Shown here one piece after another: positions 3,839 through 42,220 of a stretch of DNA of 64,000 nucleotides (positions are counted from its first letter, which is position 1; each line of letters begins with the position of its first letter). This DNA comes from Minisyncoccota bacterium (GTDB lineage Bacteria > Patescibacteriota > Minisyncoccia > Phycocordibacterales > UBA9973): contig JAGOQQ010000005.1 in NCBI GenBank assembly GCA_017991395.1, forward strand, positions 4,726 through 68,725, given 5' to 3'. The position numbers and the translations under genes are program-made. A model generated the notes under the pieces. It had not been told where the DNA came from, made no database searches, and saw only the letters and a list, made by a program, of their open reading frames with translations.

Positions 3839-4717
3839 ATGATTCAAAAAATCAGAGAAACACAGAAAACCCATCTTCTAAACATGTTTGGAAATGTGAT
3901 TGATGCTCAATCCCTCACCAAGGATGAGGCACAAGTAATTATTACTCATGGCAATCAGTTGAAGGAAGACTTATTTAAGACTACAAAAGATTTTGTTCAA
4001 AGAGCTTTGTGGCAAGGAAATAACTATCCTAAAGATTATCGCCGTAAGCCAGTTGAACGTCAGGTAAACATTTTAGCCTCAGTTTTTGATTTATCAACTG
4101 ATGAAACAATGAAGTTTGTTACAGAACGATTACCTAACATTAAACTGCCCCGCCATGCCGAAGGATGGTTCGCAATTCCCTCTATCGAAGCTGTTGCGAA
4201 AAAACATTTTCCACAGGTAACAGGTGATATTGATCAGTATCGTGAATGTATTCGATTTGTTTGTAAAAAAGTTAAAGACACACGAGTATTTAGCGATTAC
4301 GGTTTGGGGTACTTCAATCATCATTCGTTCATGGAAAGACCAAAATCTTTAAACGCTTTTGGTTGGATGGGTGGACAAAAGGGAGAAATTATTATTATTC
4401 CTGCACAATTAGGAATGCGCTACCAAGGAAAGTCTATTAATGATGCTTTACAAGCATTCAGAAAAGAAGAATTTCCACTTGGAATGTTTGAAGTGCTTTC
4501 AATTCTCCTTACTCATCCTAAACGATTAGGAATTTATTCCGGTCTTGGTATGACATGTGCAGACAACGCTATATCAAACGATGGAGTTCCTAAGTATCCT
4601 CATTTTTGGATGGATTCAACAGAGCCTTCTTGGGGTGATAGAATAAACTTTCAAAACAGATTGAATGGTTATGACACACAACCTTATTATGCTGTCCTTT
4701 CTGGATTTAAATTTTAA
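3839..4717 (+). CDS. hypothetical protein
   Basis: It is a 292-aa ORF with coding-like composition. I recognised no motif. Confidence 0.5.
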   Translation: MIQKIRETQKTHLLNMFGNVIDAQSLTKDEAQVIITHGNQLKEDLFKTTKDFVQRALWQGNNYPKDYRRKPVERQVNILASVFDLSTDETMKFVTERLPNIKLPRHAEGWFAIPSIEAVAKKHFPQVTGDIDQYRECIRFVCKKVKDTRVFSDYGLGYFNHHSFMERPKSLNAFGWMGGQKGEIIIIPAQLGMRYQGKSINDALQAFRKEEFPLGMFEVLSILLTHPKRLGIYSGLGMTCADNAISNDGVPKYPHFWMDSTEPSWGDRINFQNRLNGYDTQPYYAVLSGFKF

Positions 4718-4736
4718 TTGAATTTAAACTTTTATA

Positions 4737-4766
4737 CCGCTTGCATTTTGCAGGCGGTATTTTTAT
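4737..4766 (+). terminator. rho-independent terminator
   Basis: The hairpin is ccgcttgc-atttt-gcaggcgg, followed by a T-run. Confidence 0.6.
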
Positions 4767-4822
4767 TTCTCAATTTAATATTATGGTAAAAGTATCTAAA
4801 AACGCTACTTTTTCACATCTAC

Positions 4823-5020
4823 GGAGGATGAAGGAATCTTTCCTTGCAGGAACAGTATACCTTTTCGGTGGAGATGAAGGAATCGGTCACAAGTCTTTTT
4901 CTACTGAAAAAGCTCGCGACCCCGCCTCCCGCCGTCGCGGTCCGGCTTTCGATTCCTTCATCCCTCTCGCAATGATGATACAAAAAGACAGAGCGTTTAG
5001 CTCTGCCTTTTTGTTCATTG
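4823..5020. repeat. Array of tRNA-Trp 3'-end-derived fragments joined to conserved element-end sequences
   Basis: GGAGGATGAAGGAATC (4823-4838) is a direct copy of the tRNA-Trp acceptor and T-arm up to the T-loop. It is followed by the 29-mer TTTCCTTGCAGGAACAGTATACCTTTTCG (4839-4867), which recurs at 50578-50606. A second copy GGAGATGAAGGAATCG (4870-4885) is followed by GTCACAAG..TTTTTCT. An inverted partial copy lies at 4947-4965. Confidence 0.6.
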
Positions 5021-5091
5021 CGGGGGATGAAGGAATCGAACCCTCACCAAAGGTTTTGGAGACCTTCGTTCTACCACTAAACTAATCCCCC
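5021..5091 (-). tRNA. tRNA-Trp (anticodon CCA)
   Basis: Manual fold: acceptor gggggat/atccccc, anticodon stem aaggt/acctt, loop ctCCAaa, T-arm gaggg-ttcgatt-ccttc. CCA is not encoded. Confidence 0.8.
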
Positions 5092-5261
5092 ATCTCCGCC
5101 ACAAGGGCGGACGACGCGAATGCCCAGCAAAATAATAATTATGCGGGATCACTTTCCTAAACTAAAGTGTTAGGACTAGAAAGAACATATAACAAAAAAG
5201 AAAAAGGAATCCCTTTTCTTTTTTGCAGTTCTAGTATAGCAAACCTTTCAATAGTAAGAAA

Positions 5262-5423
5262 CTATTTCTTTGCTTCCTTGTGAACAGTGTTTTTCTTACA
5301 CCATTTGCAGTACTTTTTGAGCTCGATCTTTTTTGTAACGAGCTTCTTATTTTTACTTGACCAGTAGTTGATTCTTTTACAACTTCCGCAGGCAAGCTTT
5401 ATCAATCTGTCTTGTGATGCCAT
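5262..5423 (-). CDS. rpmG: 50S ribosomal protein L33
   Basis: The 53-aa product is MASQDRLIKLACGSCKRINYWSSKNKKLVTKKIELKKYCKWCKKNTVHKEAKK, with a Cys4 zinc ribbon and the conserved KYC..C..HTVHKE motif. It is under 60 aa and so is missing from the ORF track. Confidence 0.8.
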   Translation of the reverse strand: MASQDRLIKLACGSCKRINYWSSKNKKLVTKKIELKKYCKWCKKNTVHKEAKK

Positions 5424-5517
5424 AGTGGGTATACAATACTATAATTTGTTTAAAAATGCAAGGATATATTATGGACAAAAGTGCAATAAAATGCTATTTT
5501 ATTTAGGTGTAAAGTAT

Positions 5518-5600
5518 GCGTCGGTGGTAGAGTGGTCAATTACAACAGACTGTAAATCTGTCGGCTTCGGCCTACGTAGGTTCAAATCCTACCCGGCGCA
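5518..5600 (+). tRNA. tRNA-Tyr (anticodon GTA)
   Basis: The acceptor is gcgtcgg/ccggcgc with one G-U pair. The anticodon loop is ctGTAaa. It has a long variable arm and the T-arm gtagg-ttcaaat-cctac. Confidence 0.8.
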
Positions 5601-5604
5601 CAAT

Positions 5605-5655
5605 AAAAATCCCCGTAAGGGGATTTTTTTGACGGGTAGGATTTGAACCGAAGGT
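5605..5655 (+). terminator. Terminator hairpin followed by an inverted copy of the tRNA-Tyr 3' end
   Basis: The hairpin atccccgtaaggggat plus a T-run lies at 5609-5630. It is followed by gacgggtaggatttgaacc (5632-5650), which is the rc of the T-arm and acceptor region of tRNA-Tyr and ends inside the T-loop. Confidence 0.6.
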
Positions 5656-5784
5656 GCCAATTTTTAATGAGCTTGCGTAGTATAAGCGATTGCTAAAAAT
5701 TGAGCATCTCGACTGAAAGGAGAGGCAAATCCTAATAATATATAAAAAATGAGCTACTGTTTTTTAAACAATAGCTCATTATAT

Positions 5785-6381
5785 TTAAAAGATTAAATCT
5801 CTTTTTTCTTTCAACAAATACTCAAACAATACAGCTCGAGTTCTATCTTCAGAAAATTTACGCTCAAGTAAAAGTTTAAATACTTCTTTGTACGTCATCT
5901 CAACAATTTCGATTCTTTCATCATCTTCAGGTCGAGGTTTTCCTTTCTGAAATTCTTCAACAAGATAATAATGCAAATCATGCTCAACGGTAGCAGACGA
6001 AGGAGAAACATAAAAAGGCTTCAGCCTTTCAATAAAAATACCAATCTCTTCTTTTGCTTCACGAATAATCGCATCACGAAGCATGTATTCATTCCCAGAA
6101 TTATCTGATCCGTCTTTTTCAAGAAAATCAAGATACTCACAAAGATTGTCGGCGACCTTTCCTCCAGTCAACCGATAATCCCACGGTTGATCAAGATATT
6201 CCCTTTTTTCTTTTTGAAAAATTAATCCTGTTTCTGTAGGAATTATTGCTCTTACCCCGGGAGATCTCCGGAAATATTCCTTGCCTTTTTCATTCTGAAG
6301 AACTTGTCCAATTTTTCCGTTAAACACAGGACTATATCCGTCGCGTGCATCAATTGCATAATTAATTGGTTTTATTTTCAT
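5785..6381 (-). CDS. NUDIX hydrolase
   Basis: It carries a Nudix box-like sequence, GGKV...E...LRDAIIREAKEEIGI. Confidence 0.6.
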   Translation of the reverse strand: MKIKPINYAIDARDGYSPVFNGKIGQVLQNEKGKEYFRRSPGVRAIIPTETGLIFQKEKREYLDQPWDYRLTGGKVADNLCEYLDFLEKDGSDNSGNEYMLRDAIIREAKEEIGIFIERLKPFYVSPSSATVEHDLHYYLVEEFQKGKPRPEDDERIEIVEMTYKEVFKLLLERKFSEDRTRAVLFEYLLKEKRDLIF

Positions 6382-6548
6382 AGTTATTATTTTTAAATAT
6401 TATATATAATTTTAAATATTTGTCAATATTATAAAATTGATTAGCAAACACTTTACATAAGTGTTTTCATGATACCAACTATGTAGCGCTTTGACTTCTT
6501 TGTTATTGACAGGAACTTTAAATATGTTATTATTGTGAAAAACCGAAC

Positions 6549-7091
6549 ATGAAAAAGGACCCTAGAATCAAGAATCTTGAAAGGATTCACAAAAAACTTC
6601 AATCAACTACCGATAGATTGGGAATGCCCATCGATAAGGGTATTTTTAATACTGTGAAGTACCTCAATGCACTGGGCTACAAAACATCAATGAGCTGTGA
6701 GGGGCATCTTAAAAAATCTGGAAAATTACCTAATGGCGGACTACCATTTCCTTGGGTGGTAATTGATTACGCTAATGACAATGCTGATTTGCAAAAAATG
6801 ACTGACAGCGAAAGGAAACTGTACAAAAAGAATCAACTAAAGAAATGTTTTCCTGTGATGAACGAAATATTAGGTCTTATTGATGAATTTTATAAAAACA
6901 GGCACCATGTGCCATCAATACACAAAATCACAGTAATACCATTTCATCAGGGAAAATTGCGCATTCAAAGTCTTTCTGGATACTTTATTGAAGCTCAACC
7001 AAAAAAAGTTCAATCTGAATGGTTTTTCATAACCAGTATGGAAATGCGATATTTTACAAAATTCTTAGGAATAAAGTACTTCTCAAAATAA
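6549..7091 (+). CDS. hypothetical protein
   Basis: It is a 180-aa ORF. A bidirectional terminator, atcccccttccgggggat (7100-7117), follows it. Confidence 0.45.
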   Translation: MKKDPRIKNLERIHKKLQSTTDRLGMPIDKGIFNTVKYLNALGYKTSMSCEGHLKKSGKLPNGGLPFPWVVIDYANDNADLQKMTDSERKLYKKNQLKKCFPVMNEILGLIDEFYKNRHHVPSIHKITVIPFHQGKLRIQSLSGYFIEAQPKKVQSEWFFITSMEMRYFTKFLGIKYFSK

Positions 7092-7127
7092 GTATTTAAA
7101 AATCCCCCTTCCGGGGGATTTTATAAT

Positions 7128-9824
7128 TTACATCGACTCCTTCTTGCTTCTTGTCTTTGCAATCGGGCTTTTTGTTTTTGATCTACGAGTATCTATGTGA
7201 AGTGCACCATCTTTTACCGACACGTACACCACATCACCCTTTTCTGCTCCCTTAGTAATGATATGTGATGCGACAGGATTCAAAATCTTTGTTTGAATCA
7301 GACGATTGAGTGGTCTTGCACCATACTGTGGATTGTACCCTTCCTTACCGAGCAGTTCGAGTGCTTCATCGGTGATTTGAAGTGCAATATCTTTTGCAGT
7401 CAATCGTGCGCGAACTTGCTCGATTCTGATTTCTACAATATTTCTAATTGATTGAGGTGAAAGAATATCGAATAGAATAATTTCATCAAGACGATTCAAA
7501 AATTCTGGGCGGAAATGATCTTTGAGACTTGTCATAACCTTTTCTTTTGTCTGAACATAATCATCTGTAGCGGTGTTGTTAGAAAATCCTATTGTCTCCA
7601 TTTTTTCAATATGCCGTGAACCAATGTTTGAAGTCAGAATAATTACAGAATTTCGGAAATTCACCACTCTTCCCTTTGCATCAGTGAGTCGTCCTTCATC
7701 AAGCACTTGAAGGAGAATATTGAATACTTCAGGATGAGCTTTTTCAATTTCATCAAACAAGATTACTGAGTACGGGCGATGTCGGACCGCTTCGGTAAGC
7801 TGACCTGATTCATCGTGTCCTACATATCCTGGTGGCGAACCCACAAGCTTTGACACACTGTGTCGCTCCATATACTCAGACATATCTACTCTAATAAGCG
7901 CCTTGTCATCATTGAAAAGAAATTGCGCGAGTGCCTTTGTGAGTTCTGTCTTTCCGACTCCTGTTGGACCAAGAAATATAAATGAACCGATTGGGCGATT
8001 TGGATCTGCGATTCCAGCACGTGAACGGCGAATCACATCAGATATTTTGGTAATTGCTTCACTTTGTCCTATCACACGTTTTGTGAGCTCTTCTTCCATT
8101 CGAGCAAGTTTTGCACGTTCTTCTTCCAGCATCTTTGCAAGAGGAATACCTGTCCATCGTGCGACAACTTCTGCAATATCTTCACTTGTAATTTCTTCTT
8201 TGAGAATACGACGAGATTTTTGGAGCTTCTTCAGTCGTCCGAGCTTCACGTCGAGTTCTTTTGAGAGAGTAGGAATTTTTCCATAACGAATTTCAGCTGC
8301 TCGAGCAAGGTCTGCACGCATTTCTGCTTGCTCAGCTTCTAGTCGGAGTGCATCCAAATCTTTTTTGATTGTCCGAATCTCTGTGACGGTAGTTTTCTCG
8401 TTTTGCCACTTGAGTTCAATTTCTCGAGTTTTTTCTTTGTGGTTTGCAATTTCTTTATCAATATCTTTGATACGATTTTTTGTTCCCTTGTCTTCTTTGT
8501 CGGCAAGTTCAACTTCTTTTTTCAATGCTTCTTTTTCGATTTCAAGTCGCATAATTTTGCGATGGGCTTCATCGAGAATTGGAGGTTTATTTTCAAGTGC
8601 AATCCGAAGAGAAGATGCTGCTTCGTCTATGAGGTCGACAGCTTTGTCAGGAAGATTTCGATTTGTGATGTATCGTACAGAGAGATTGACCGCAGATTGA
8701 ATCGCGTCATCCGTAATACGCACGCCGTGATAGAGTTCATATTTTTCTTTGAGTCCACGCAAAATAGCAGTCGCGTCCTCAGGTGATGGTTCTTCTATGT
8801 AGACAGGCTGAAATCGCCGAGCGAGGGCTGGATCCTTTTCAATGTGTTTTTGATATTCTTTAAGAGTTGTTGCTCCGATTGCACGAAGTTCTCCGCGTGA
8901 GAGTGCCGGCTTGAGCATGTTTGATGCATCAAGTGAACCTTCTGAAGCCCCTGCGCCTACGATAGTATGAATTTCATCAATAAAAAGAATAATCTTTCCA
9001 TCAGCACGTTCGATTTCTTTCATGAGTGATTTCAATCGCTCTTCAAATTCTCCGCGGTATTTTGTACCTGCAATAAGTGAGCCCAGATCAAGAGAAACAA
9101 GCTCTTTGTCTTTCAAAGATTCTGTAACATCACCTTTGGCGATGCGTTGTGCCAATCCTTCTACTACTGCAGTCTTACCTGTACCGGGTTCTCCAATCAA
9201 AATTGGATTGTTTTTTGTACGACGTGAAAGAATCTGCATAATCCGCATTATTTCTGTATCGCGTCCAATCACAGGATCAAGCTTGTCTTCTTTTGCAAGT
9301 TTTGTAAGATTGCGAGTGTATTTTGTGAGTACTCGAAACTTTTTTGGAGAATTTGTGTCGGTAATATTTTGAGCTTTGAATTCTTCGACAATTTTCAGCA
9401 CTTGATCTTTGCTAATTCGGAAACGAGTGAGAAGTTCTTTTGCATCACTTGGAACTTCGAGAAGTGCAACAAAAATATGTTCTGTTGATACAAATTCATC
9501 TTTCAAATATCCTGCGACTTTGCTTGATGTTTCGATGACTTGTGCGAGGTCAGGCGTGAGGTACAGCTGAAACGAGGGTGACGCAACATTGTTGACGCGA
9601 GATTCAGGTGCTTCGATATTTTCAAGTACCGAATCAGTAAGAAGCATCGAATCTATCTCGAGTCGTTCGATGATTGAAAGCACCATAGACTCCTCTTGTA
9701 AAAGGAGTGCGGTGAGAAGATGAAAAGAGTTCACATGGTTTTGACCTCGCTCAATAGCGAGTTCGTGTGCCTTCTTGATAGCTTCTTTTGCTTTTGATGT
9801 GAAGTGATTGAATGGAGGCATCAT
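7128..9824 (-). CDS. clpB: ATP-dependent chaperone ClpB (Clp/Hsp100 AAA+ family)
   Basis: It has an N-terminal Clp N domain, two AAA+ modules ([16 protein letters not shown]) and a long coiled-coil middle domain between them. Confidence 0.9.
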
Positions 9825-15493: not shown

Positions 15494-15678
15494 GAGGTGG
15501 GACTCGGTCACGAATATTTTTCTCGCCGTCGCTTGAAAAATTTCTCTACCCCAGCTCGGTATTTTATTCTGGTGAACAAAATATACCTGCGCTTTTAGAG
15601 TCCCACACGTACGCAAAAAACTTTGCGTACTCTCGGGCACATATTAAAATAACCACCATTGGTGGTTATTTTAATATG
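15494..15678. repeat. tRNA-Leu(TAA) 3'-fragment with element-end sequences and a 27-bp-arm palindrome
   Basis: GAGGTGGGACTCG (15494-15507) is a direct copy of the tRNA 3' part up to the T-loop and is followed by GTCACGAATATTTTTCT. The palindrome ctcgggcacatattaaaataaccacca/tggtggttattttaatatgtgcccgag (15631-15686) incorporates the tRNA acceptor end. Confidence 0.55.
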
Positions 15679-15763
15679 TGCCCGAGGTGGGACTCGAACC
15701 CACACGGCCGTTAAAGGCCAAGAAATTTTAAGTCTCTCGTGGCTACCATTACACCACTCGGGC
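15679..15763 (-). tRNA. tRNA-Leu (anticodon TAA)
   Basis: The acceptor is gcccgag/ctcgggc. The anticodon stem agaga/tttct has loop ctTAAaa. It has a long variable arm and the T-arm gtggg-ttcgagt-cccac. Confidence 0.8.
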
Positions 15764-15781
15764 AACTTTATTATTTTTTTG

Positions 15782-15853
15782 AGGCGTGGGCGGGAATTGA
15801 ACCCGCGCATGGCGGTTTTGCAGACCGCAGCGTTACCACTTCGCCACCACGCC
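15782..15853 (-). tRNA. tRNA-Cys (anticodon GCA)
   Basis: The acceptor is ggcgtgg/ccacgcc. The anticodon stem gcggt/accgc has loop ctGCAaa. The T-arm is cgggt-tcaattc-ccgcc. Confidence 0.8.
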
Positions 15854-15969
15854 AAAGACTTGTGTAACCCACTATACACAAAATACACTAAAAAATAAAG
15901 TTTTTCCGGGAGTTAATAATATTTGAAGTATAATTAAATATAATGTATAATGCCCAAGTATTTTAATAT

Positions 15970-16042
15970 CCACCCGTAGCTCAGCTGGTAGAGCACTCGA
16001 CTCTTAATCGATTGGTCGTTGGTTCGATTCCAACCGGGTGGA
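15970..16042 (+). tRNA. tRNA-Lys (anticodon CTT)
   Basis: The acceptor is ccacccg/cgggtgg. The D-arm is gctc-agctggta-gagc. The anticodon loop is ctCTTaa. The T-arm is gttgg-ttcgatt-ccaac. Confidence 0.8.
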
Positions 16043-16468
16043 CACGAATTAAAAAGAAGAACTTCTTCTTGTTTTTAGTTCGTGTCCAAGCCGCAGTAAT
16101 GTTTTTGTTTGAGCGAAGCGAAAGGCAAAAACCACGAGGCGGGCTCGCGAAATTTTTACGTCAGTAAAAATATTTGTGAGGACACGTAGTAGCAAGAACT
16201 TCTTCTTGTTTTTAGTTCGTGTCCAAGCCGCAGCGATGTTTTTGTTTGAGCAAAGCGAAAGGCAAAAACCGCGAGGCGGGTGAGAAAGTGTGGGACACTT
16301 TCGCAAGACCTTTTGAGAATTTTTGTGAGCGAGCGAAACAAAAAGTCCAAAAGGTGTACAGAATCTGTAAGATTCGCGAAATTTTTACGTCAGTAAAAAT
16401 ATTTGTGAGGACACGTAGTAGCAAGAACTTCTTCTTGTTTTTAATTTAAAAAAAGATAGTAACAATAT
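16043..16468. repeat. Tandem ~140-bp direct repeats (about 2.5 copies) with hairpin modules between two tRNA genes
   Basis: aagaacttcttcttgttttta occurs three times (16063-, 16203-, 16420-). gttcgtgtccaagccgcag..gtttttgtttgagc.aagcgaaaggcaaaaacc.cgaggcggg occurs twice. cgcgaaatttttacgtcagtaaaaatatttgtgaggacacgtagtagcaag occurs twice. The first hairpin pairs with the tRNA-Lys 3' end (tggacacgaa / ttcgtgtcca). Confidence 0.7.
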
Positions 16469-16550
16469 GCTCGGGTGGCGTAATTGGTAGCCGCGTCAGT
16501 CTTAGGAACTGGTGGAGAAATCCGTGGAGGTTCAAGTCCTCTCCCGAGCA
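16469..16550 (+). tRNA. tRNA-Leu (anticodon TAG)
   Basis: The acceptor is gctcggg/cccgagc. The anticodon stem tcagt/actgg has loop ctTAGga. It has a long variable arm and the T-arm ggagg-ttcaagt-cctct. Confidence 0.75.
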
Positions 16551-16976
16551 CAACGAAAAATAATGAACCCAATGCGAGAGCATTGGGTGATTTATTTTTA
16601 TGCTCGGGAGAGGACTTGAAAGCCGGAGGCGGTATACAAGACGCAGCGAAGCGAAGTGCTTGTCGCCGAGGCGGGGTCGCGAGTACTTAGTAGAATTTGA
16701 GCTGGCGAAAAATTATACTTAGTAACTCGTGACCAAGACACTGCTTGGCTTGCGCGAGAGGACTTGAAAAGGTTCTCCCATATTTTTGTGAGCCTGCGAA
16801 CAAAAATGGGAAACCTGTACTGCTCCTGTAAGGAGAAAATCCTCTCCTGGACACTATCCCAAATTCTCGTGACCAAGTCCCCTCCCGACGACCACTGAAA
16901 TTATACTTAGTAACCTGTGACCAAGACATCCCAATACGCAAATTAAAAACACCCGAACTCACGTACGGGTGTAAAT
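16551..16976. repeat. Non-coding repeat region carrying inverted T-loop-truncated copies of the tRNA-Leu(TAG) 3' end and other short repeats
   Basis: The terminator hairpin cccaatgcgagagcattggg is followed by gctcgggagaggacttgaa (16601-16619), the rc of the T-arm and acceptor. A second copy gcgagaggacttgaa lies at 16755-16769. attatacttagtaac.tgtgaccaagaca occurs twice (16713-, 16897-). Confidence 0.55.
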
Positions 16977-19011: not shown

Positions 19012-20835
19012 CTATCCTTCTCTCATCATTTTCAAAAAAACGTCATGAGGAATATTGACCTTTGCGCGAGCTTGCATCTTTTTCTTTCCTTTCTTTTGTT
19101 TTTCGAGCAATTTCATTTTTCGAGTAATATCACCTCCATACAAATATCCCGTCACATCCTTTCGAAACGCGGACAATGTCTTTGAAGCGATAATTCTACC
19201 ATTTGCATATCCTTGAATCTTAGTGACGAACATTTGCCGTGGAAGAATACCATGCAATTTTTCAACCGCATTTTCTGCTTCTTCTTGTGCACGACGTTTT
19301 GAAATAACTCGCGTAAACGCAGGAACAATTTCTTCTGCAACAAAAATATCAAGTCGTGTGACATCAGCGAGACGCATATCTGCAAATTCGTAGGAAATTG
19401 ATGCATACCCAGATGAAATACTTTTGAGTTCATCAAAAAAGTTTCGCATCATTTCTCGAAGTGGCATAAGAACATTGATCGCAGAACGATTGTCTCCAAA
19501 GTTTTCTGTTTCGTGTACCTCTGCTTCATGATCATACAAAAGTGGCATAAGTGAACTAAGATAATTTGATGGTGTGATGATTTTTATTTTCACCCACGGC
19601 TCCATCACTTGCGTAAAATCACCATCGTTTGGAAAAAGATGAGGAGAATAAATAGTTTGTTCTTTACCGTTTTTGAGTTTGACAATATACGTAATCGAAG
19701 GCGTGGTGACTACAAGTTCAAGGTTGAATTCTCTGCGAAGTCTCTCTGAAATGATTTCCATATGAAGCATCCCAAGGAAGCCACATCTATACCCACGTCC
19801 AAGTGCCCCAGAAGCCTCTTCCTCGAATGTAAACGCAGAATCCGAGAGCTTGAGTCGAGACAAGGCAAGCTTGAGCTCTGGGAAGTCGTCCGCACTTTCT
19901 GGATAAATAGACGCCCACACCACAGGACGTGGGAGCATGTATCCAGGAAGTGCTTCTTGAGGATTTTTGAAGAGTGTAATCGTATCTCCCACAGACGCGA
20001 TACCTGGGCGTTTGATACCGGTCACAATATATCCAATTTCACCCGCACAAATTTTTTCTTTTGAAACTTCGTCAGGACTAAAGGTACCAACTTCAAGTGT
20101 GATAAATTTTTCATTTGAAATTCTAAAAAGAAGTGTGTCGTGTGGCTTCACCTGTCCGTTCAAAATTCGAACATACACAATCACACCTTGGTGGTTTGAG
20201 TATTTGAAATCAAACACAAGTGCCTGAAGCACAGACGCGGAGTCACGCGGATCTGACGCGGATGAACGCGGAGAAGTAATAGTTGGAGCAGGTACTCTTT
20301 CTTTTACAGCCCTTAAAAGTTCAGCTACACCCTGTCCGGTTTTTCCAGAAACCTCAAGCACAGTATCTGGATCAACATTTAGAAGTGCGGCAATTTCAAG
20401 CTTAGTTTCGTCCACGCGTGCAAGTGGTGAATCCACTTTTGACACCGCGGGAATAATCACCAGTCCACTTTCGCGCGCCATTTGAAGTGTAGTGAGAGTC
20501 TGCGCTTGAACACCTTGAGTAGAGTCAACAAGAAGAATAGATCCTTCTACTGCTTTCAATGCACGAGATACTTCGTATGAAAAGTCGATGTGTCCAGGAG
20601 TATCGATGAGGTTCATCACATACATCTGTCCATCAATTTCGTATTCCATTCGCACAGGTTGCATTTTGATTGTAATTCCCCGCTCTCGTTCAAGCTCCAT
20701 ATTGTCTAGTACCTGATCACGCATTTTGCGAGATTCAATAGTATGAGTCACCTCAAGCATACGATCGGCAAGCGTAGACTTGCCGTGGTCGATGTGGGCG
20801 ATAATAGAAAAGTTTCGGATATTTTCAGGCTTCAT
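19012..20835 (-). CDS. lepA: elongation factor 4 (LepA)
   Basis: The G domain has [10 protein letters not shown] and DTPGH. The LepA-specific C-terminal domain is present. A repeat-encoded peptide, SPRSSASDPRDSAS, is inserted in the linker after the G domain. Confidence 0.9.
   Translation of the reverse strand: MKPENIRNFSIIAHIDHGKSTLADRMLEVTHTIESRKMRDQVLDNMELERERGITIKMQPVRMEYEIDGQMYVMNLIDTPGHIDFSYEVSRALKAVEGSILLVDSTQGVQAQTLTTLQMARESGLVIIPAVSKVDSPLARVDETKLEIAALLNVDPDTVLEVSGKTGQGVAELLRAVKERVPAPTITSPRSSASDPRDSASVLQALVFDFKYSNHQGVIVYVRILNGQVKPHDTLLFRISNEKFITLEVGTFSPDEVSKEKICAGEIGYIVTGIKRPGIASVGDTITLFKNPQEALPGYMLPRPVVWASIYPESADDFPELKLALSRLKLSDSAFTFEEEASGALGRGYRCGFLGMLHMEIISERLRREFNLELVVTTPSITYIVKLKNGKEQTIYSPHLFPNDGDFTQVMEPWVKIKIITPSNYLSSLMPLLYDHEAEVHETENFGDNRSAINVLMPLREMMRNFFDELKSISSGYASISYEFADMRLADVTRLDIFVAEEIVPAFTRVISKRRAQEEAENAVEKLHGILPRQMFVTKIQGYANGRIIASKTLSAFRKDVTGYLYGGDITRKMKLLEKQKKGKKKMQARAKVNIPHDVFLKMMREG
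20231..20272. repeat. In-frame 11-bp-periodic TCCGCG(T)NNNN tandem array inside lepA
   Basis: cagacgcggag tcacgcggat ctgacgcggat gaacgcggag. This encodes the extra peptide SPRSSASDPRDSAS between the G domain and domain II. Confidence 0.8.
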
Positions 20836-20963
20836 GTCTTGCCATCATATCAGAAAAGTGTTGGAAAATAAAGGCCTCTTAAACGCGAACGAGACGCGAA
20901 CTGAACGCTGACTGGATGCGAATTTAGCGAAAATCACAAGAAAAACTTAATTATTAATAATCA

Positions 20964-20992
20964 TTGACAAAACCATATAATTGTGATAAAAT
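20964..20992 (+). promoter_or_regulatory. sigma70-type promoter
   Basis: TTGACA (20964-20969), a 17-nt spacer, then TAAAAT (20987-20992), upstream of the ORF at 21016. Confidence 0.55.
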
Positions 20993-21015
20993 GTTTTTAA
21001 ACAATAAACATAAAA

Positions 21016-21267
21016 ATGGAGCCAAAAATAGCTATCGAGCTAATTCAAACTGGAAAATTATCAACGGAGGAAATTCTTCAGATTGGTAAAGAAGTAAAGG
21101 ATCAAAAGGTCTGGCAGGAGATTATTCAACAAATCGACTGGTCAAAATTTGAAATCAATGAAATGCTCAAGATTGGCAAAGAAGCAAATGATCCGAATGT
21201 CTGGCAAAAGATTGTTCAACAAATTAAATCTGGCAAATTCAAACAATACGAAGACCATCGTGGTTGA
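21016..21267 (+). CDS. small hypothetical protein with two ~35-aa internal repeats
   Basis: The repeats are EEILQIGKEVKDQKVWQEIIQQI and NEMLKIGKEANDPNVWQKIVQQI. The gene has a strong promoter and a terminator hairpin, gctcccctttattggggagc plus a T-run (21306-21336). Confidence 0.5.
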   Translation: MEPKIAIELIQTGKLSTEEILQIGKEVKDQKVWQEIIQQIDWSKFEINEMLKIGKEANDPNVWQKIVQQIKSGKFKQYEDHRG

Positions 21268-21390
21268 CAGATTTTTTTCAAATCTAAAAACTTAATTATT
21301 ATCATGCTCCCCTTTATTGGGGAGCTTTTTTATTTTTCATTTTCTGCGTTTTTTCCGCGTTCAGTCCGCGTGGTTCCGCGTCTTAGACGT

Positions 21391-23082
21391 TTAATCAGCG
21401 ATATTTTGATCTGGCACCACCACTGCCTGTTTCCAAAACTTTCTGTGTAGTGCTTGTGCCACTTCGGCAAGCTCGCGACTCTTAAGCAAATACAAAATTC
21501 CTGCCCACGCAATAAGTCCAATTATTCCTGCGACAAATCCCTGCAAGAAAATTCCCCAAAATGTATTTATGTCTACAATATCATCCAAAAATCCCAGAGC
21601 CTTGTATGTGACAAATCCAAGAATAAATGATGCGGCGATACTTTCAAATCCCACACGTTTGATTGTTGTTTTTGTTTCGGCAAAATAATCTTTTCTAAAC
21701 ATGAGCCAAAGTGCAAATGCATTTGCAATGATTCCACACGCATACCCAAGTGGAAGCATGAGTATTCGTGTACCTTCGATACCATCTACACGAAGAAGAG
21801 AATCTAGAAAATGCGCAAAAAATGGAACTTTGTCATACAGCATCAAAAATCCAAACGCAAAAAGAATTTCAGAAAGTGTAAATACAATATTTACCACAAG
21901 CGGACGATTCGTTCGGCCTGCTGCATAGTATCCACGTGTCAAAAGCACAATAAGACTTTGAGCAACAACAGAAAATGCAAAGAGTGCGAGAGCCGCCGCA
22001 GTGAGTCGTGTGTCATCCCAAGTAAATCTCCCTGTACCCAAAATCACACGAACAATCTGCGCACGTAATACGACGAAGAGTACAATCACTGGCATTGACC
22101 AAAAAATAATCTGACGCATTGATGTCATTATTGAGTGGCGAAATTCATCGAGCTTGCCGAGTGAAAATGCTTTTGCAAGCGTCGGAAATGCCGCGACAGA
22201 ATATGACACACCAATAATACTGATTGGAACTGCTTGAAGATTGTATGCAAAAGAGAAAATAGAAATTGATCCTTCATCCATCATTGAGGCAATAGCAATA
22301 AGTACCAAAAGTGCAAGACTATTGAGTGAAAGCCCAAGTGTTCTTGGGAGTGAAAGTAGCACAACTTCTTTGAGGAGTTTTTTGTCGACAGATTTTACAA
22401 CTGCTGGTGCAAATGAATGTGAGTACAGTACTGGCAACTGAATAAGCATATGAAGTATCGCTCCGATCACCACACCAATACCAAGACCAATCACACCCAT
22501 AGACGGGTAGAAAAAATAAATACCAGCAAGTATTCCGGCATTGTACAGTACTGGCGCAAGTGCATAGACAAAAAACTTTCTATACAACTGTGTGACTGTA
22601 CCAAAAAGATTTGAAAGTCCAAGAAATATTGGAGACAGAAGCATCACACGACTAGTAAGTACGAGTTCGTACATTTGGGCACTATCAAAACCTGGTGCGA
22701 TAAATGGTGCGATGTCTGGCATCAGTACAAACAAAATGACCGAGACCACTGCCATGAGAGCAAGGAAGCCTGAAAACACCTGAGAGAGAAATGCTCGAGC
22801 TACCGATGTATTGTTTTCATCGCCTTTCAATCGGTCAATCACAAATGGCAAAAGCACCGTAATTGAAACCATTGTAGAAACAGAGTTGAACATCAAGTCC
22901 GGAATTCGAAATGATGCGTAGTAGACATCGAGCGATCCAGACGCACCAAGCACGTGCGCAAAAGACCTGTCTCGAATCAATCCGAGAATCTGTGAGAGAA
23001 ACGCAAATCCGGCAAGCAAAAAAGCGGCTTCTGTGATACCGCTAAATTCCTTGTGTACGAGTGAGAGAAGCTTTTTGACCAT
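21391..23082 (-). CDS. murJ: lipid II flippase MurJ (MviN)
   Basis: It is a polytopic membrane protein. The N-terminal motif is IRDRSFAHVLGASGSLDVYYASFRIPD. Confidence 0.85.
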   Translation of the reverse strand: MVKKLLSLVHKEFSGITEAAFLLAGFAFLSQILGLIRDRSFAHVLGASGSLDVYYASFRIPDLMFNSVSTMVSITVLLPFVIDRLKGDENNTSVARAFLSQVFSGFLALMAVVSVILFVLMPDIAPFIAPGFDSAQMYELVLTSRVMLLSPIFLGLSNLFGTVTQLYRKFFVYALAPVLYNAGILAGIYFFYPSMGVIGLGIGVVIGAILHMLIQLPVLYSHSFAPAVVKSVDKKLLKEVVLLSLPRTLGLSLNSLALLVLIAIASMMDEGSISIFSFAYNLQAVPISIIGVSYSVAAFPTLAKAFSLGKLDEFRHSIMTSMRQIIFWSMPVIVLFVVLRAQIVRVILGTGRFTWDDTRLTAAALALFAFSVVAQSLIVLLTRGYYAAGRTNRPLVVNIVFTLSEILFAFGFLMLYDKVPFFAHFLDSLLRVDGIEGTRILMLPLGYACGIIANAFALWLMFRKDYFAETKTTIKRVGFESIAASFILGFVTYKALGFLDDIVDINTFWGIFLQGFVAGIIGLIAWAGILYLLKSRELAEVAQALHRKFWKQAVVVPDQNIAD

Positions 23083-23308: not shown

Positions 23309-25969
23309 TTACCCTACCACTATATTTATAATTCTTCCTTTTACATACACAAACTTTTTAATTTCTTTTCCTAGAAGCCACGCGATTATCTTTGGATCTT
23401 GAAGTATCATATTTTTTACTTCGTCCTCATCTGCATTTTCATCAAGTGTAATTTCGCTACGCACCTTGCCATTTACCTGAATCCCAATTGTCACACCCTC
23501 GTGTGCAATTTTCTTTTTGTTTACTTTTGGCCACTCACTTTGATGTATTGAGTTTTTCATTCCAAGATTCTCCCAAATTTCTTCTGTCATAAATGGTGCA
23601 AACGGAGAGAGGAGTTTTATGAAATGAATATAATCATCTTTTGTTATGGCAGGCATATCATCAATCTGATTTTGTAAAATCATTAATGCTGAAATAGAAG
23701 TGTTGAAAGAAAATCCTTCAATGTCTTTTTGAACTTTTTCTGTGGTCTTGTGTAAAAGTGATTCAAATTTGTTGTATTTTTCGAGAGTTTCTTTTGAAAT
23801 ACTTTTCACAACTTTTTCCTGTGTACGCCATACTCGCTCAAGAAAACGTCTTGGCCCCATAATACTATCTGTATTCCACAATACCATTTGATCAAATGGT
23901 CCCATAAAAGATTCATACACACGAAGTGTGTCTGCACCATACGTCTTCACAATGTCATCAGGATTGATAACATTTCCCCAACGCTTAGACATTTTTCTTC
24001 CATCTTGGGCAATTACAAAACCTTGGTTGCGAAGTGCTTTGAACGGTTCTTCTGTGGGAACATATCCCATATCTTTCAAAAACTTGTGCCAAAAACGAGA
24101 ATATAAAAGGTGTCCTGTCGCATGCTCTTGTCCTCCAACATACATATCTACATCTTTCCAGTACGCAATTGCCTTTTTGTCTGCAAAAGCTTTTTTGTTT
24201 TTTGGATCCATATAGCGAAGAAAGTACCATGAAGATCCAGCCCATCCCGGCATTGTATTTGTCTCATATCCAGATTTGACCCAAGATGATACTGTCGCGA
24301 GAGGACTCTCACCTGTTCCAGACGGTGCGTATGATTTTACGTTTGGAAGCTTGAGTGGCAAAGATTTTACCTCACTTATTGTGCCATCTTTTTTGTGAAC
24401 AAGAGGAATTGGCTCACCCCAATATCTTTGTCGTGCAAAAATCGCATCACGCATTTTGTATTTTGTTACAATACGTCCACCAACTTTTTTTGTAATAGCT
24501 ATGCGCGCTTCGTGTGTTGAAAGTTTGTCAAAATCACCCGAATTGATCAGCTTGCCTTCTTCGCCGAGATAACAATCTTTTCCTTGTACAACTTTGACCA
24601 AAAATGACTCAAGTGTTTCAAGATCCATTCCAGAACCCGATGGCTCAACCACACACTTTTTTTCAAGTCCGTATTTTTCTGCAAATTCAAAATCTCTTTT
24701 GTCATGAGAAGGTACTGCCATCACCGCACCTGTGCCATATGACGCAAGTACATAATCAGCAATCCATACTGGAACTTCTTCACCATTTGCGGGATTGATA
24801 GCAAACACACCGTCAAGAATAACTCCTGACTTTTCTTTTGAAATATCTGTGCGATCGTGAATATCTTTTAATTTTGCACGAGCAATATATTCTTCAACCT
24901 CTTCTATATTTTTAGTATTCTTTTTCAATCTTTCAACAAGTGTGTGTTCGGGTGCAAGTACAACATACGTCACACCAAAAAGAGTATCCGCGCGAGTAGT
25001 GAAAACTTTTAATACAGCGTCTAGCGACTTGCTACTAGCGACTAGTTTGAAATCAATTTCGCTTCCTTCAGATTTTCCAATCCAATTTCTTTGAATTTCT
25101 TTTATGTTGTCGTTCCAATCAAGTCCATCAAGTCCGTTCAAAAGTCTATCTGCATATGCTGTGATTCGCATAAACCACTGTCGCATCATTTTCTTTGTAA
25201 CAGGATGCTCTCCGCGTTCTGACACTGGGCCACTTGGTCCATCAATAATCTCATCATTTGCAAGCACAGTCCCAAGTTCTTCACACCAATTCACTTCACT
25301 ATATCCTTGGTATGAGAGACGGTAATTCATCAGCATTTTTTCACGCTCATTTGACGACATTTTTTTCCAATCTTCTTTTGAAAAAAGCGAAGTGCTGTCG
25401 GAACATTCTGCCTCTACATTTTTATTTCCTTCTTTACTAAAAATAGTTTCAAGTATTTTTATGTCTCGTGCGCAATTTTTCTTTTTGTCATACCAAGAAT
25501 TATAAAGTTGCAAAAAAATCCATTGAGTCCATTTGTAATAGCTCGGGTCGTGAGTTGCAATCATCTTGTCCCAGTCATACGAAAATCCAATGATTTCGAG
25601 TTGCTTTCGATATTGTTTTACAAGTGTATCAGTAAAAGGCCCCGGATTCTTTCCAGTTTTGATTGCGTATTGTTCTGCAGGAAGTCCAAATGAATCAAAT
25701 CCCATCGGATGAAGTACGTTGTATCCTTGCATTCTCTTGAGTCGTGCAAACACATCAGACGCAATATACCCCCGCGGATGTCCCACGTGAAGTCCTGCCC
25801 CAGATGGGTACGGAAACATATCCAATACATAGCACTTACGCGGAAGTGACGCGGACTTTCGCGGACTAGACGCGGAAGGATTCTTTGTTTTATAAACCTT
25901 TTTCTTCTCCCACTGTTTTAGGATTTTTGCCTCAATTTTCTTGTGGTCATATTGCGTTAGTTTTTTCAT
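23309..25969 (-). CDS. leuS: leucine--tRNA ligase
   Basis: It has the HIGH-region FPYPSGAGLHVGHP and the KMSKS-region KMSKRWGN, with class I editing and anticodon-binding domains. A repeat-encoded insert, NPSASSPRKSASLPRK, lies near the N-terminus. Confidence 0.9.
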   Translation of the reverse strand: MKKLTQYDHKKIEAKILKQWEKKKVYKTKNPSASSPRKSASLPRKCYVLDMFPYPSGAGLHVGHPRGYIASDVFARLKRMQGYNVLHPMGFDSFGLPAEQYAIKTGKNPGPFTDTLVKQYRKQLEIIGFSYDWDKMIATHDPSYYKWTQWIFLQLYNSWYDKKKNCARDIKILETIFSKEGNKNVEAECSDSTSLFSKEDWKKMSSNEREKMLMNYRLSYQGYSEVNWCEELGTVLANDEIIDGPSGPVSERGEHPVTKKMMRQWFMRITAYADRLLNGLDGLDWNDNIKEIQRNWIGKSEGSEIDFKLVASSKSLDAVLKVFTTRADTLFGVTYVVLAPEHTLVERLKKNTKNIEEVEEYIARAKLKDIHDRTDISKEKSGVILDGVFAINPANGEEVPVWIADYVLASYGTGAVMAVPSHDKRDFEFAEKYGLEKKCVVEPSGSGMDLETLESFLVKVVQGKDCYLGEEGKLINSGDFDKLSTHEARIAITKKVGGRIVTKYKMRDAIFARQRYWGEPIPLVHKKDGTISEVKSLPLKLPNVKSYAPSGTGESPLATVSSWVKSGYETNTMPGWAGSSWYFLRYMDPKNKKAFADKKAIAYWKDVDMYVGGQEHATGHLLYSRFWHKFLKDMGYVPTEEPFKALRNQGFVIAQDGRKMSKRWGNVINPDDIVKTYGADTLRVYESFMGPFDQMVLWNTDSIMGPRRFLERVWRTQEKVVKSISKETLEKYNKFESLLHKTTEKVQKDIEGFSFNTSISALMILQNQIDDMPAITKDDYIHFIKLLSPFAPFMTEEIWENLGMKNSIHQSEWPKVNKKKIAHEGVTIGIQVNGKVRSEITLDENADEDEVKNMILQDPKIIAWLLGKEIKKFVYVKGRIINIVVG
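25838..25880. repeat. In-frame 11-bp-periodic TCCGCG array inside leuS
   Basis: acgcggaagtg acgcggacttt cgcggactag acgcggaagg. This is the same repeat family as in lepA and the intergenic copies. Confidence 0.8.
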
Positions 25970-26615: not shown

Positions 26616-26852
26616 TTTTTCTAAGATTGTTTAGAAACAGTCTACTGTATTTGGTTTAAAAAGCAAGTAAAATACAAAGTGGGAAAATGCCGAGGCATTT
26701 TCCCACTGTATTTTTTTACCCCTCCTCGCATTCACTTCGTTCATGTCGTCCTCCCCTCTAGGGGAGGCTTTAATTCCGAATTCACTTTTCACTAACCCTA
26801 TTTACTAATCCCTGTTTTCTAAAGTCTAAAGACTAACTACTAAAGACTCTAA

Positions 26853-27957: not shown

Positions 27958-28506
27958 ATGACATCTCGTAAAACACCAAAAACAAAAACCCGAGTTCGCC
28001 CACGCCTTGAGCGCTGGACAGAAAATGCTATTAGCTGGGTCGGCTCAAAAAACTCAGTTGCGGTACATACCGTCTTTTTTATAGGGATGTTTCTTTTGAT
28101 ATTCCTTGGGGTAAAACCTGAGACAGTACTACTTGTACTTACGACAATTGTGTCACTCGAAGCGATCTACTTGGCAATCTTCATTCAAATGACCGTCAAC
28201 AAAAACACATTCGATATTGAAGAGATTCAAGAAGACGTGGAAGAAATTCAAGAGGATGTGGAAGAGATTCAGAAAGATGTCGATGAGATTCAAGAGGATG
28301 TGGATGAAATTCAAGAAGACGTCGAAGAAATTCAGGAAGACGTGGAAGAAATTCAAGAGGATGTTGATGAGATTCAGGAAGATGTTGACGAGATCGAAAA
28401 AGAAGAAGAGACAGCAGAACAAAAGCATGACCGCGAACTTCTCACAAAGATTGAAGGAACACTTGGAATTTTAATCAAAGAAATTGAACAGTTGAAAAAG
28501 AAATAA
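27958..28506 (+). CDS. Membrane protein (2 TM, DUF1003-like) with an acidic C-terminal heptad array
   Basis: The array is (E/D)EIQEDV x9, encoded by 21-bp tandem repeats at ~28219-28395. A terminator, ccccgcacacgtgcgggg, follows at 28510-28535. Confidence 0.55.
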   Translation: MTSRKTPKTKTRVRPRLERWTENAISWVGSKNSVAVHTVFFIGMFLLIFLGVKPETVLLVLTTIVSLEAIYLAIFIQMTVNKNTFDIEEIQEDVEEIQEDVEEIQKDVDEIQEDVDEIQEDVEEIQEDVEEIQEDVDEIQEDVDEIEKEEETAEQKHDRELLTKIEGTLGILIKEIEQLKKK

Positions 28507-42142: not shown

Positions 42143-42220
42143 AATTAGTTTATAGTTTTAAGTTGATAGTTTATAGAATGAATGCGACCACAAACTTCTA
42201 TGTTATAAAGTATAACAAAT

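Follow-up and report, generated by a model that had tools for sequence, protein, structure and literature searches.

Phased heptamer arrays in lepA, leuS and gene ends of a Minisyncoccota genome and the association of their repeat family with GxxExxY nuclease genes

A 64-kb stretch of DNA from a Minisyncoccota bacterium (64,000 nucleotides of contig JAGOQQ010000005.1, here called the window) raises the question of how one short repeat came to lie both within the reading frames of lepA and leuS and at the ends of several other genes. The window contains seven arrays of the form ACGCGGAnnn(n), each of 2-5 units at a spacing of 10 or 11 bp; the opposite-strand form of the heptamer is TCCGCGT. Two of them are read in frame: a solo array of four units at 20235-20276 inside lepA (19012-20835, minus strand), with TCCGCGT on the coding strand, and another solo array of four units at 25838-25880 inside leuS (23309-25969, minus strand). 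Three abut or overlap the 3' ends of genes. These are a four-unit array at 21339-21381 (minus strand), 10 bp from the murJ stop codon (21391-21393), a four-unit array at 42809-42851 (plus strand) at the end of udg, and a five-unit array at 42997-43049 (minus strand), 5 bp from the stop codon of a pyridine-nucleotide oxidoreductase gene (43054-44289, minus strand). The remaining two are a five-unit array at 20883-20932 (plus strand) in the spacer upstream of lepA, 48 bp before the ATG, and an array at 61438-61491 (plus strand) with two perfect units (61471-61491) and three degenerate ones, the latter overlapping the last codons and the stop of a DoxX-family membrane protein gene (60410-61459).

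Chance is ruled out as the origin of these arrays. A position-weight scan recovers six arrays of at least three units in the window against 0.01 in shuffled sequence (100 shuffles), TCCGCG occurs 27 times with 10.3 +/- 2.7 expected, and 13 of the 18 exact ACGCGGA heptamers in the window fall within arrays. The window arrays have at least three phased heptamers of the type (A/G)C(G/A)C(G/A)GA at 10-11-bp spacing. The initial annotation, made from the sequence alone, was right that repeat arrays occur in lepA, leuS, gene ends and spacers. It had described an 11-bp unit of about one helical turn; the units are indeed phased to the helix, but their spacing alternates between 10 and 11 bp, and the true period is 21 bp. 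The heptamer is kept within each array while the spacers vary, which points to selection on the motif and not to recent duplication. Three of the window arrays (labelled B, E and F) have a common order of unit variants, which we take as sequence-level evidence of copying. The array heptamer may resemble a DnaA box (TTATCCACA versus TTATCCGCG) or a MuA end site (ACGCGAAA); a role as an origin of replication is opposed by the copy number and the intragenic locations of the arrays.

The arrays in the spacers are partly arranged as mutually inverted pairs (20883/21381 and 42809/43049), an orientation of which the earlier description made no mention. The left arm of the first pair, at 20883-20932, consists of the units ACGCGAA, ACGCGAA, ACGCTGA, ATGCGAA and AGCGAAA, and beyond the right arm, at 21339-21381, degenerate units reach the last murJ codons. 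Between the arms (20933..21338, plus strand) lie a promoter-like site (20964-20992), an 83-aa ORF without a family match (21016-21267) and a terminator-like hairpin (21306-21325). In the second pair, the left arm (42809-42851) supplies the udg codons ISRTHAD and the stop codon TAG (42827-42829), and the right arm is the array next to the oxidoreductase gene (42997-43049); the use of arrays as gene termini, proposed earlier for udg and the DoxX-family gene, is confirmed for both. What the window pairs enclose is the unrelated 83-aa ORF or terminator hairpins and not a nuclease, and the arms of each pair could be unconnected arrays, each at the end of one of two adjacent genes.

The idea that the repeat is peculiar to this genome has to be given up. 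The phased heptamer in a three-unit pattern is present at more than 119 loci in a wide range of phyla, with arrays in Chloroflexota, Patescibacteria, Xanthomonadales, Gemmatimonadota, Planctomycetota and Nitrospirota, among others, and 24 convergent inverted pairs, with arms 3-440 bp apart, are found in these other loci. The alternating 10/11 spacing holds for 45 of 47 adjacent spacings in Patescibacteria arrays; in arrays of other phyla, 140 of 159 are of the 10/10 type. Stop codons in all three frames, considered as a feature of the non-Patescibacteria arrays, are not general. Other Patescibacteria have in-frame arrays in TopA, RecG, UvrB, IF-2, a class I tRNA synthetase and LepA, and the sites taken by nuclease or array lie between switch I and DTPGH in LepA and IF-2 and before HIGH in class I tRNA synthetases. 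A His_Phos_1 domain in one tRNA synthetase (L042) has no flanking arrays and is a separate phenomenon. Arrays also occur inside genes for RNase P RNA and for 16S rRNA, the site within the latter being GGATTAGATAC/CC. One RNase P RNA gene contains two hairpin elements of ~80 nt that are 96% identical, spacers included, and this near-identity is, judged from sequence, further evidence of copying. We found no published description of the repeat, the motif strings matching only primers; literature searches on Rickettsia palindromic elements (RPE) and Patescibacteria, and on REPIN/RAYT, yielded nothing relevant to the arrays, and Rfam has no model for them. The array repeat family is apparently undescribed hitherto and spans many phyla, although the view that it is unlikely to be a known family stands only in part, because the arrays are tied to an annotated nuclease family.

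The gene that the inverted terminal arrays flank encodes a GxxExxY nuclease of the PD-(D/E)XK fold class (TIGR04256/PF13366) of ~125 aa. Complete units, with arrays on both sides of the gene, lie at 4609-5102 in L091 and at 6267-6800 in L005. Among 80 metagenomic GxxExxY genes, a periodic array of at least three units is located downstream of 39, upstream of 25 and on both sides of 17. A recount of 80 genes with a fixed regular expression gave 29, 23 and 14, respectively, with a background of 0.018 per 350 bp, and about half of the sampled nuclease genes have no detectable array. The motif comes in the variants CGCGGA, CGCAGA, CACGGA and CACAGA, with the same variant on both sides of a gene. 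The variant tracks the phylogeny of the nucleases, being common to 27 of 36 nearest neighbours where 9.8 would be expected and where 500 permutations gave at most 18. This co-variation shows co-inheritance, not recognition. The 64-kb window itself has no GxxExxY gene. TIGR04256/PF13366 has thousands of members across bacteria. As far as we know, PD-(D/E)XK nucleases hydrolyse DNA and none carries out strand transfer, nor do we know of a transposase activity for the GxxExxY family. The nuclease profile matched no sequence in the PDB, and with PADLOC giving only a marginal match to Cas4 and PHROGs none, nothing points to a part in defence or in phages. The function of the family is unknown (PMC3424549).

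We propose that the window arrays are non-autonomous copies, in the form of solo arms and inverted pairs, of a widespread nuclease-associated miniature selfish element, a reading to which we give a probability of about 0.6. A complete element measures ~0.5 kb and comprises 3-5 direct heptamers of the ACGCGGA(T) type, the nuclease gene and the same array inverted. With the 10-11-bp spacing of the array, each turn of the helix presents one heptamer, and all of them look to the same side. We infer that an oligomer of the nuclease recognises the phased heptamers and cleaves the DNA at the arrays or close by, upon which host recombination or repair would copy the arrays, with or without the gene, to other positions, in many cases at the expense of a short piece of the local sequence. 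A simple cut-and-paste mechanism, acting on an element with two ends, does not account for the solo arms. In a gene-dense Patescibacteria genome, copies would last only where they are harmless to the host, namely in spacers, at gene 3' ends and in disordered surface loops of proteins. At gene 3' ends, array spacers such as CTAG provide the stop codon, and in loops the arrays would be translated as xPRxSAS or NADxTRx heptads. The alternating spacing of the Patescibacteria arrays adds up to 10 + 11 = 21 bp, or seven codons, so that an array with an even number of units never shifts the frame, and this would be the reason why in-frame arrays are tolerated.

The geometry of the arrays is also that of known regulatory sites. 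OmpR/PhoB-type response regulators bind 7-bp direct repeats with an 11-bp period, and heptamer arrays of this kind match the geometry of pho boxes and ParR iterons, in that pho boxes and the ParR/parC iterons are likewise ~7-bp direct repeats with a 10-11-bp period, three to five in a row along the same side of the helix. Helix-phased heptamers with 3-4-bp spacers in arrays of 3-5 might thus be operator-like clusters for a host protein, be it an OmpR/PhoB-type regulator or a nucleoid or partition protein, with the nuclease genes incidental; one array does precede the lepA start codon by 48 bp. We regard this as unlikely. Pho boxes and ParR iterons are fixed promoter or plasmid sites, whereas the arrays are dispersed, polymorphic and intragenic. 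Though the geometry fits, the position in the promoters of a regulon does not: the arrays lie in coding regions, at gene 3' ends (as do most of the intergenic copies in the window) and in RNA genes, and the genes concerned are unrelated housekeeping genes and those for RNase P RNA and 16S rRNA. The presence of an array varies between near-identical strains, and the motif recurs in distant phyla beside the same small nuclease gene, with which it co-varies.

The copies in coding sequence bear on a second alternative. Both the lepA and the leuS ORF run through their arrays in frame, as had been claimed, and the peptides quoted for them, SPRSSASDPRDSAS in LepA and NPSASSPRKSASLPRK in LeuS, are correct. 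In lepA the array is held by an in-frame variable segment of 54 nt (20230..20283, minus strand, TITSPRSSASDPRDSASV), and in leuS by one of 51 nt (25835..25885, minus strand, KNPSASSPRKSASLPRK) just upstream of the HIGH motif. Each copy is a direct repeat of 42-43 bp in a single orientation, without a second arm. The LepA of another locus, L082, has an array, a nuclease domain and an inverted array, all fused in frame, and no stop codon separates the nuclease domain from the downstream LepA sequence. Such a nuclease gene within conserved, essential genes at tolerant or conserved sites is reminiscent of inteins and homing endonucleases. Unlike in inteins, Pfam finds only PDDEXK_3 in the L082 insert and no Hint splicing domain, and the protein appears to retain the insert; the coding copies, unlike intron-borne homing genes, need no ribozyme core. 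It has nonetheless to be asked whether paired arrays act at the level of RNA, forming a long helix in the manner of rRNA intervening sequences. RNase III, or the PD-(D/E)XK protein as an RNA endonuclease, would then excise this helix, and the inserts in rRNA, RNase P RNA and perhaps mRNA would be removed instead of tolerated. This is quite unlikely. The single arms in lepA and leuS cannot form such a helix, the coding copies are all free of stops in the host frame, and the three length changes seen in coding sequence are multiples of three. These constraints, to which the uninterrupted L082 frame also conforms, would be needless for a segment that is removed from the mRNA, and they count against the RNA-level reading.

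The length changes come from comparisons of array-bearing with array-free alleles. For lepA, the window has 54 nt where a relative with 95% nucleotide identity, L004, has 48 nt (+6 nt); for IF-2, L028 and L219, from the same 90% protein cluster, differ by +60 nt (40 nt to 100 nt); and leuS has +27 nt relative to its relatives. A fourth pair is the 3' end of udg, where the array of the window is missing in strain L213 (GCA_030917345.1) and a hairpin encodes the last UDG residues, KGTTLS. Every comparison has the array substituting for a short pre-existing variable stretch (24-48 nt). In this respect the description of the repeat as inserted needs amending: alleles with and without the array do exist, but the array replaces a local stretch, and no target-site duplication is seen in the lepA, udg and IF-2 comparisons. 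By inspection, the flanks of the Chloroflexota and hairpin copies likewise have no consistent target-site duplication, and a fixed terminal dinucleotide was not found at the array elements. Copies in spacers also differ between relatives. The array at 20883-20932 is kept in L004 with one substitution, and in L001 a diverged array takes its place, in a syntenic spacer that has arrays at both ends around a different, ORF-less interior. At the oxidoreductase site L213 has four units against five in the window, which means that unit number varies. Such differences in unit number between strains would also be expected of in-place replication slippage of an 11- or 21-bp unit, with neither mobility nor a dedicated protein. 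Tandem Repeats Finder does call the arrays 11- or 21-bp repeats, and some GC-rich matches (L043, L090 and L092) are perfect tandem copies with identical spacers. Slippage is nevertheless very unlikely, since the heptamer is conserved with spacers that differ within an array, the identical heptamer is found at unrelated loci in unrelated phyla, inverted array pairs surround a specific gene, and near-identical multi-unit copies occupy separate sites.

The alignments with orthologues bear out the earlier proposal that the inserts are lineage-specific. LepA relatives with 92-97% identity have an unrelated 48-nt segment at the array site and those with 76% identity have no segment there. LeuS relatives with 79-82% identity have G(S/T)KKGAKK (24 nt) in place of the array segment, and among the matches listed (70 of 120 N-termini) the LeuS array peptide is present only in a 100%-identical entry. 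An older LepA insert (SNTLYDPELNKDSNS) has no convincing trace of a decayed array. In the AlphaFold model of LepA, residues 188-198 have a pLDDT below 50, and the insert is accordingly predicted to be a disordered, low-confidence linker between the G domain and domain II. The initial annotation called lepA essential, which it is not known to be in model bacteria. That the peptides are ancestral and functional in LepA and LeuS, with the DNA periodicity a by-product of a repeated peptide, is hardly credible even though the LepA linker and the LeuS pre-HIGH segment vary in length in many Paceibacteria, as it is already contradicted by the unrelated sequences of the nearest relatives at both sites; the predicted disorder of the lepA insert also speaks against it, as does the occurrence of the DNA motif outside coding sequence, on either strand and in more than one reading frame.

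The nuclease-associated element that we favour can be set beside several known systems. The comparison with RPE made in the initial annotation is apt as an analogy, both being repeat DNA read within housekeeping proteins: a short repeat spreads in a reduced genome, in frame in housekeeping genes, where it yields an added surface peptide, and also in RNA genes and spacers. RPEs, however, are palindromes of 100-150 bp with apparently unrelated sequence, restricted to Rickettsia and its relatives (the host here belongs to the Patescibacteria and not to the Rickettsiales), whereas the arrays are phased 10/11-bp heptamers, occur in many phyla and have a candidate enzyme gene physically linked to them. 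The lepA and leuS copies have no palindrome or hairpin of ~100-150 bp, and paired versions exist elsewhere. Some RPEs have been assigned to the CGTC-tagged REPs, for which no enzyme is known (PMC3733652). Our elements do end in ...CGTCC, but those REPs are hairpins with 8-9-bp stems (PMC3733652) and this assignment was rejected.

The REPIN/RAYT system has in common with the arrays a small enzyme gene flanked by inverted copies of a dispersed repeat, which occurs as singlets and inverted doublets, and a repeat variant that co-varies with the enzyme lineage; the flanking is seen in L091, L005 and L082 and in 17 of the 80 metagenomic genes. RAYTs are HUH/Y1 (IS200/IS605-like) enzymes acting on single-stranded hairpins with a GTAG tag, whereas the flanked gene here encodes a PD-(D/E)XK nuclease. 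The 10/11-bp units have no individual hairpins, in contrast to the 20-40-nt hairpin of a REP unit with its GTAG or CGTC tag, and their arrangement as helically phased direct repeats suggests recognition of double-stranded DNA. Terminal inverted regions made up of several copies of one short binding motif are also known from Mu, Tn7, IS21 and the plant CACTA and Mutator elements, and non-autonomous derivatives without the enzyme gene are known as MITEs. Such inverted ends are represented by the two window pairs and the 24 convergent pairs elsewhere, the solo lepA and leuS copies being without a second arm. The arrays differ from all of these in that there is no DDE transposase and no target-site duplication in the filled and empty alleles, and in that single arms are common and insertions replacement-like. 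The parent element carries a nuclease.

If the proposed reading is true, it would provide a first functional context for TIGR04256/PF13366, as a mobile-repeat nuclease, and a second, independent and far wider case, after RPE, of repeat DNA absorbed into essential proteins. The loop insertions that are specific to lineages of candidate-phyla-radiation genomes, the oversized genes for rRNA and RNase P RNA in these genomes and the breaks in their assemblies would also have a concrete source. The pairing of units into 21 bp offers a simple, testable rule for how array DNA can reside in coding sequence. More tentatively, and with somewhat less than even odds, the GxxExxY proteins may be the enzymes of an unrecognised class of autonomous mini-elements that are bounded by phased heptamer arrays and colonise essential protein and RNA genes of Patescibacteria as translatable or foldable DNA, by means of the 21-bp, seven-codon unit pair. 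Were this so, selfish elements driven by a nuclease would have a third means of residing in essential genes, one that needs neither an intron ribozyme nor an intein, and some of the unexplained insertions in the proteins, rRNA and RNase P RNA of the Patescibacteria would find an explanation.

A position-weight scan recovers six arrays with three or more units in the window, against 0.01 in shuffled sequence, and TCCGCG is found 27 times where 10.3 occurrences are expected. As the initial annotation had claimed, the repeat is present in lepA (19012-20835, minus strand), where the in-frame array at 20235-20276 reads ACGCGGAGTC ACGCGGATCTG ACGCGGATGA ACGCGGAGAAG on the plus strand, and in leuS (23309-25969, minus strand), whose in-frame array at 25838-25880 reads ACGCGGAAGTG ACGCGGACTT TCGCGGACTAG ACGCGGAAGG on the plus strand. 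udg likewise takes its final codons and stop (ISRTHAD-TAG) from array DNA; the end of the DoxX-family membrane protein gene, which had also been attributed to the repeat, does draw its last codons and stop from it, but from degenerate units (61438-61491). Next to murJ and an oxidoreductase gene, arrays end 5-10 bp away from the stop codon. Two features go beyond the earlier description: unit spacings of 10 and 11 bp alternate, and there are convergent inverted pairs. The array at 20883-20932 is the left arm of one pair (20883/21381), with the opposed array at 21339-21381, and encloses 406 bp comprising a promoter-like site, an 83-aa ORF without a match to any known family and a terminator-like hairpin. 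The other (42809/43049) joins the left arm at 42809-42851 to the opposed array at 42997-43049 across ~145 bp. These “pairs” enclose other DNA and may each be two independent arrays at neighboring gene ends. Spacers adjoining arrays (20933-21338 in the window, 2960-3300 in strain L213) contain small stand-alone frames, the 83-aa ORF and an 87-aa ORF respectively; neither matches a family, and each has a terminator hairpin and a promoter close to consensus. L004, the 95% relative, has the 83-aa cassette at 100% identity, while the adjacent lepA differs. A second repeat family, with 7-bp tandem repeats (AGTCTTT, ACTAAAG or TAGTTTA, ~4 copies each), occupies spacers by gene ends at 42146-42176, 42861-42891, 61720-61750 and 26818-26848. 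Elsewhere in the window, a 21-bp tandem repeat with a 63-bp super-period (28219-28394, 8.4 copies, GAAGAGATTCAAGAAGATGTG) probably encodes an acidic heptad repeat, and short duplicated segments (16057-16443; 70-87 bp, 95-100% identical) surround the tRNA cluster at 15678-16551, appearing as secondary BLAST matches between locus L124 and the window.

The host is a Patescibacteria (Paceibacteria) MAG, and contig JAGORK010000005.1 of GCA_018062865.1 is identical to the window across the 14,642 bp compared. In an alignment of 120 homologues, the six closest LepA proteins (92-97% identical) have an unrelated 16-aa segment (QSNTLYDPELNKDSNS and variants) at the exact place of TITSPRSSASDPRDSASV in the window protein, the next relatives (76%) are without any extra segment, and many other Paceibacteria show further unrelated inserts in this linker. 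At the DNA level, L004 (95% identical) closely matches the window on both sides of the lepA segment and differs completely over the 54/48-nt segment and an adjoining ~45-bp patch. LeuS relatives (79-82% identity) possess G(S/T)KKGAKK (24 nt) in place of the 51-nt array segment; 120 LeuS sequences were retrieved and 70 of them inspected, and in these the array peptide appears only in the 100%-identical entry. In an AlphaFold model of the window's LepA, the insert (residues 188-198) has a pLDDT below 50 and falls in a predicted disordered linker that joins the G domain to domain II. The alignments and low pLDDT therefore indicate recent, lineage-specific inserts in variable loops, in keeping with the initial annotation, the closest relatives bearing unrelated peptides; its term “inserted” is to be amended, for these are replacements of former loop sequence rather than clean additions. 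That the segments are ancestral peptide is unlikely in view of several observations. Small elements seem to have landed in the LepA linker repeatedly: a Paceibacteria LepA (P0052; L220 6001-7836) contains there an in-frame GC-rich hairpin, CTCCCCCTAAAAGGGGGAG, resembling terminator-like hairpins at window positions 21306-21325 and 42976-42993. Many Paceibacteria LeuS proteins (P0126-P0240) reach 970-1290 aa with NUDIX (PF00293) and sometimes acetyltransferase domains, and a Liptonbacteria class I tRNA synthetase (L042 526-3441) has a histidine-phosphatase domain at residues 486-663; no arrays flank any of these domains.

A scan for three exact units in a row (ACGCGGA-N3-4-ACGCGGA-N3-4-ACGCGGA), each species being represented by a single genome, yielded at least 119 loci, distributed over Chloroflexota (many), Xanthomonadales, Gemmatimonadota, Planctomycetota, Nitrospirota, Acidobacteriota, Actinomycetota and others, and, within Patescibacteria, Wolfe-, Jorgensen-, Lipton-, Moran- and Saccharibacteria and Paceibacterota. 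We estimate only a few chance matches, even in GC-rich genomes. Most listed loci keep the heptamer and vary the spacers; a minority, from actinomycetes of high GC content, are simple perfect tandem repeats that may be unrelated. The listed loci include 24 convergent inverted pairs, 3-440 bp apart. The 10/11 alternation holds for 45 of 47 adjacent spacings in Patescibacteria arrays; spacing is 10/10 in 140 of 159 cases from other phyla. With alternation, two units span 21 bp, thus seven codons and two helical turns, so that four-unit arrays add 14 codons with the frame kept and code for peptide heptads, xPRxSAS or NADxTRx depending on the strand.

A 776-aa LepA from a Saccharibacteria MAG (L082; CAZGLK010000004.1, 180-2510) links the arrays to the GxxExxY nuclease. 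Between GITIKMQPVRM and LNLIDTPGH (switch I to DTPGH), it encodes in one frame a forward array, a complete GxxExxY PD-(D/E)XK domain with intact PDF...EIK residues and an inverted array; a second array hairpin covers residues 433-462. Another assembly, which may derive from the same reads, also has this protein (MBI4120456.1). Searching with this domain (tblastn) recovered free-standing versions: in an Anaerolineales locus (L091), a 125-aa GxxExxY gene that has its own ribosome-binding site is preceded by three units and followed by three inverted ones, ~0.5 kb in total, and a Thermoflexales locus (L005) is similarly laid out. In an independent sample of 80 metagenomic loci fetched by homology to the nuclease, 10/11-bp periodic arrays of at least three units lie downstream in 39, upstream in 25 and on both sides in 17, convergent in every case; the fixed pattern NCRCNGA gives 29, 23 and 14, where the distal flanks predict 0.018 per 350 bp. 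Motif variants (CGCGGA, CGCAGA, CACGGA, CACAGA, CACTGA) are alike on the two sides and agree with the nuclease phylogeny, 27 of 36 nearest neighbors being alike against 9.8 expected (permutation maximum 18, n=500). That the arrays are binding sites of a host factor is unlikely in view of several observations. Half of the 80 genes are without a detected array, and the 64-kb window contains no GxxExxY gene. A PD-(D/E)XK survey listed the family as of unknown function with multiple transfers (PMC3424549). We found no description of the arrays in the searchable literature, Rfam, PADLOC or PHROGs. The initial comparison with in-frame Rickettsia palindromic elements (RPEs), and the view that the repeat is probably undescribed, are partly supported; the reading needs broadening, the family being cross-phylum and tied to GxxExxY nucleases.

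Other Patescibacteria genes also harbor arrays: they lie in, and are read through in, TopA, RecG, UvrB (between DYFP and the DExH box), IF-2 (between switch I and DTPGH, the structural place of the L082 LepA insert) and a class I tRNA synthetase (directly before HIGH, the place of the window's LeuS array). Filled and empty alleles coexist in a 90%-identity IF-2 cluster, the filled one replacing a 40-nt loop segment with a 100-nt element that combines four units and four inverted ones with a small GC hairpin (net +60 nt). Stop-free read-through and the coding length changes at arrays (+6, +27 and +60 nt) suggest that the arrays are translated; their excision at the RNA level is unlikely, being at odds with several observations. 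RNA genes are interrupted as well. The RNase P RNA gene of L082 (6755-7393; Rfam 103.6 bits) measures 639 nt against a 367-nt model and contains array insertions, among them two ~80-nt hairpin copies (7030-7110, 7277-7352), 96% identical including spacers. In a Jorgensenbacteria locus (L040), a 3.15-kb 16S rRNA gene (4181-7331) has a group I intron in the conserved GGATTAGATAC|CCTTGTAGTCC, flanked by arrays and small GC hairpins, with more array hairpins near a LAGLIDADG-like ORF (4874-5497). Strain comparison, as had been suggested earlier, reveals variability: arrays are present or absent in lepA, udg and IF-2, strain L213 being without the udg-side array and having a different UDG C-terminus, and its oxidoreductase-side array has four units against five in the window.

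In-place slippage is likewise unlikely in view of several observations. Near-identical multi-unit copies at different sites, as in the L082 RNase P RNA, the unit-variant order common to three window arrays and strain-level presence or absence all speak for copying and not for growth in place. Most simply, the window's solo arms and inverted pairs would be non-autonomous members of a repeat family associated with the nuclease, comparable to REPINs and their RAYT enzyme or to MITEs and a parent element. A nuclease oligomer might sit on the phased sites and cleave, and repair-mediated copying of arrays could then overwrite local sequence. No target-site duplications were found at the arrays, and PD-(D/E)XK enzymes are not known to perform strand transfer. 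A gene-dense genome would keep copies where selection allows. Relative to known REPIN-, MITE- or RPE-like selfish repeats, the family is new in its enzyme partner and its architecture and, should the mechanism be demonstrated, would be of high relevance to both mobile-element and candidate-phyla-radiation biology.
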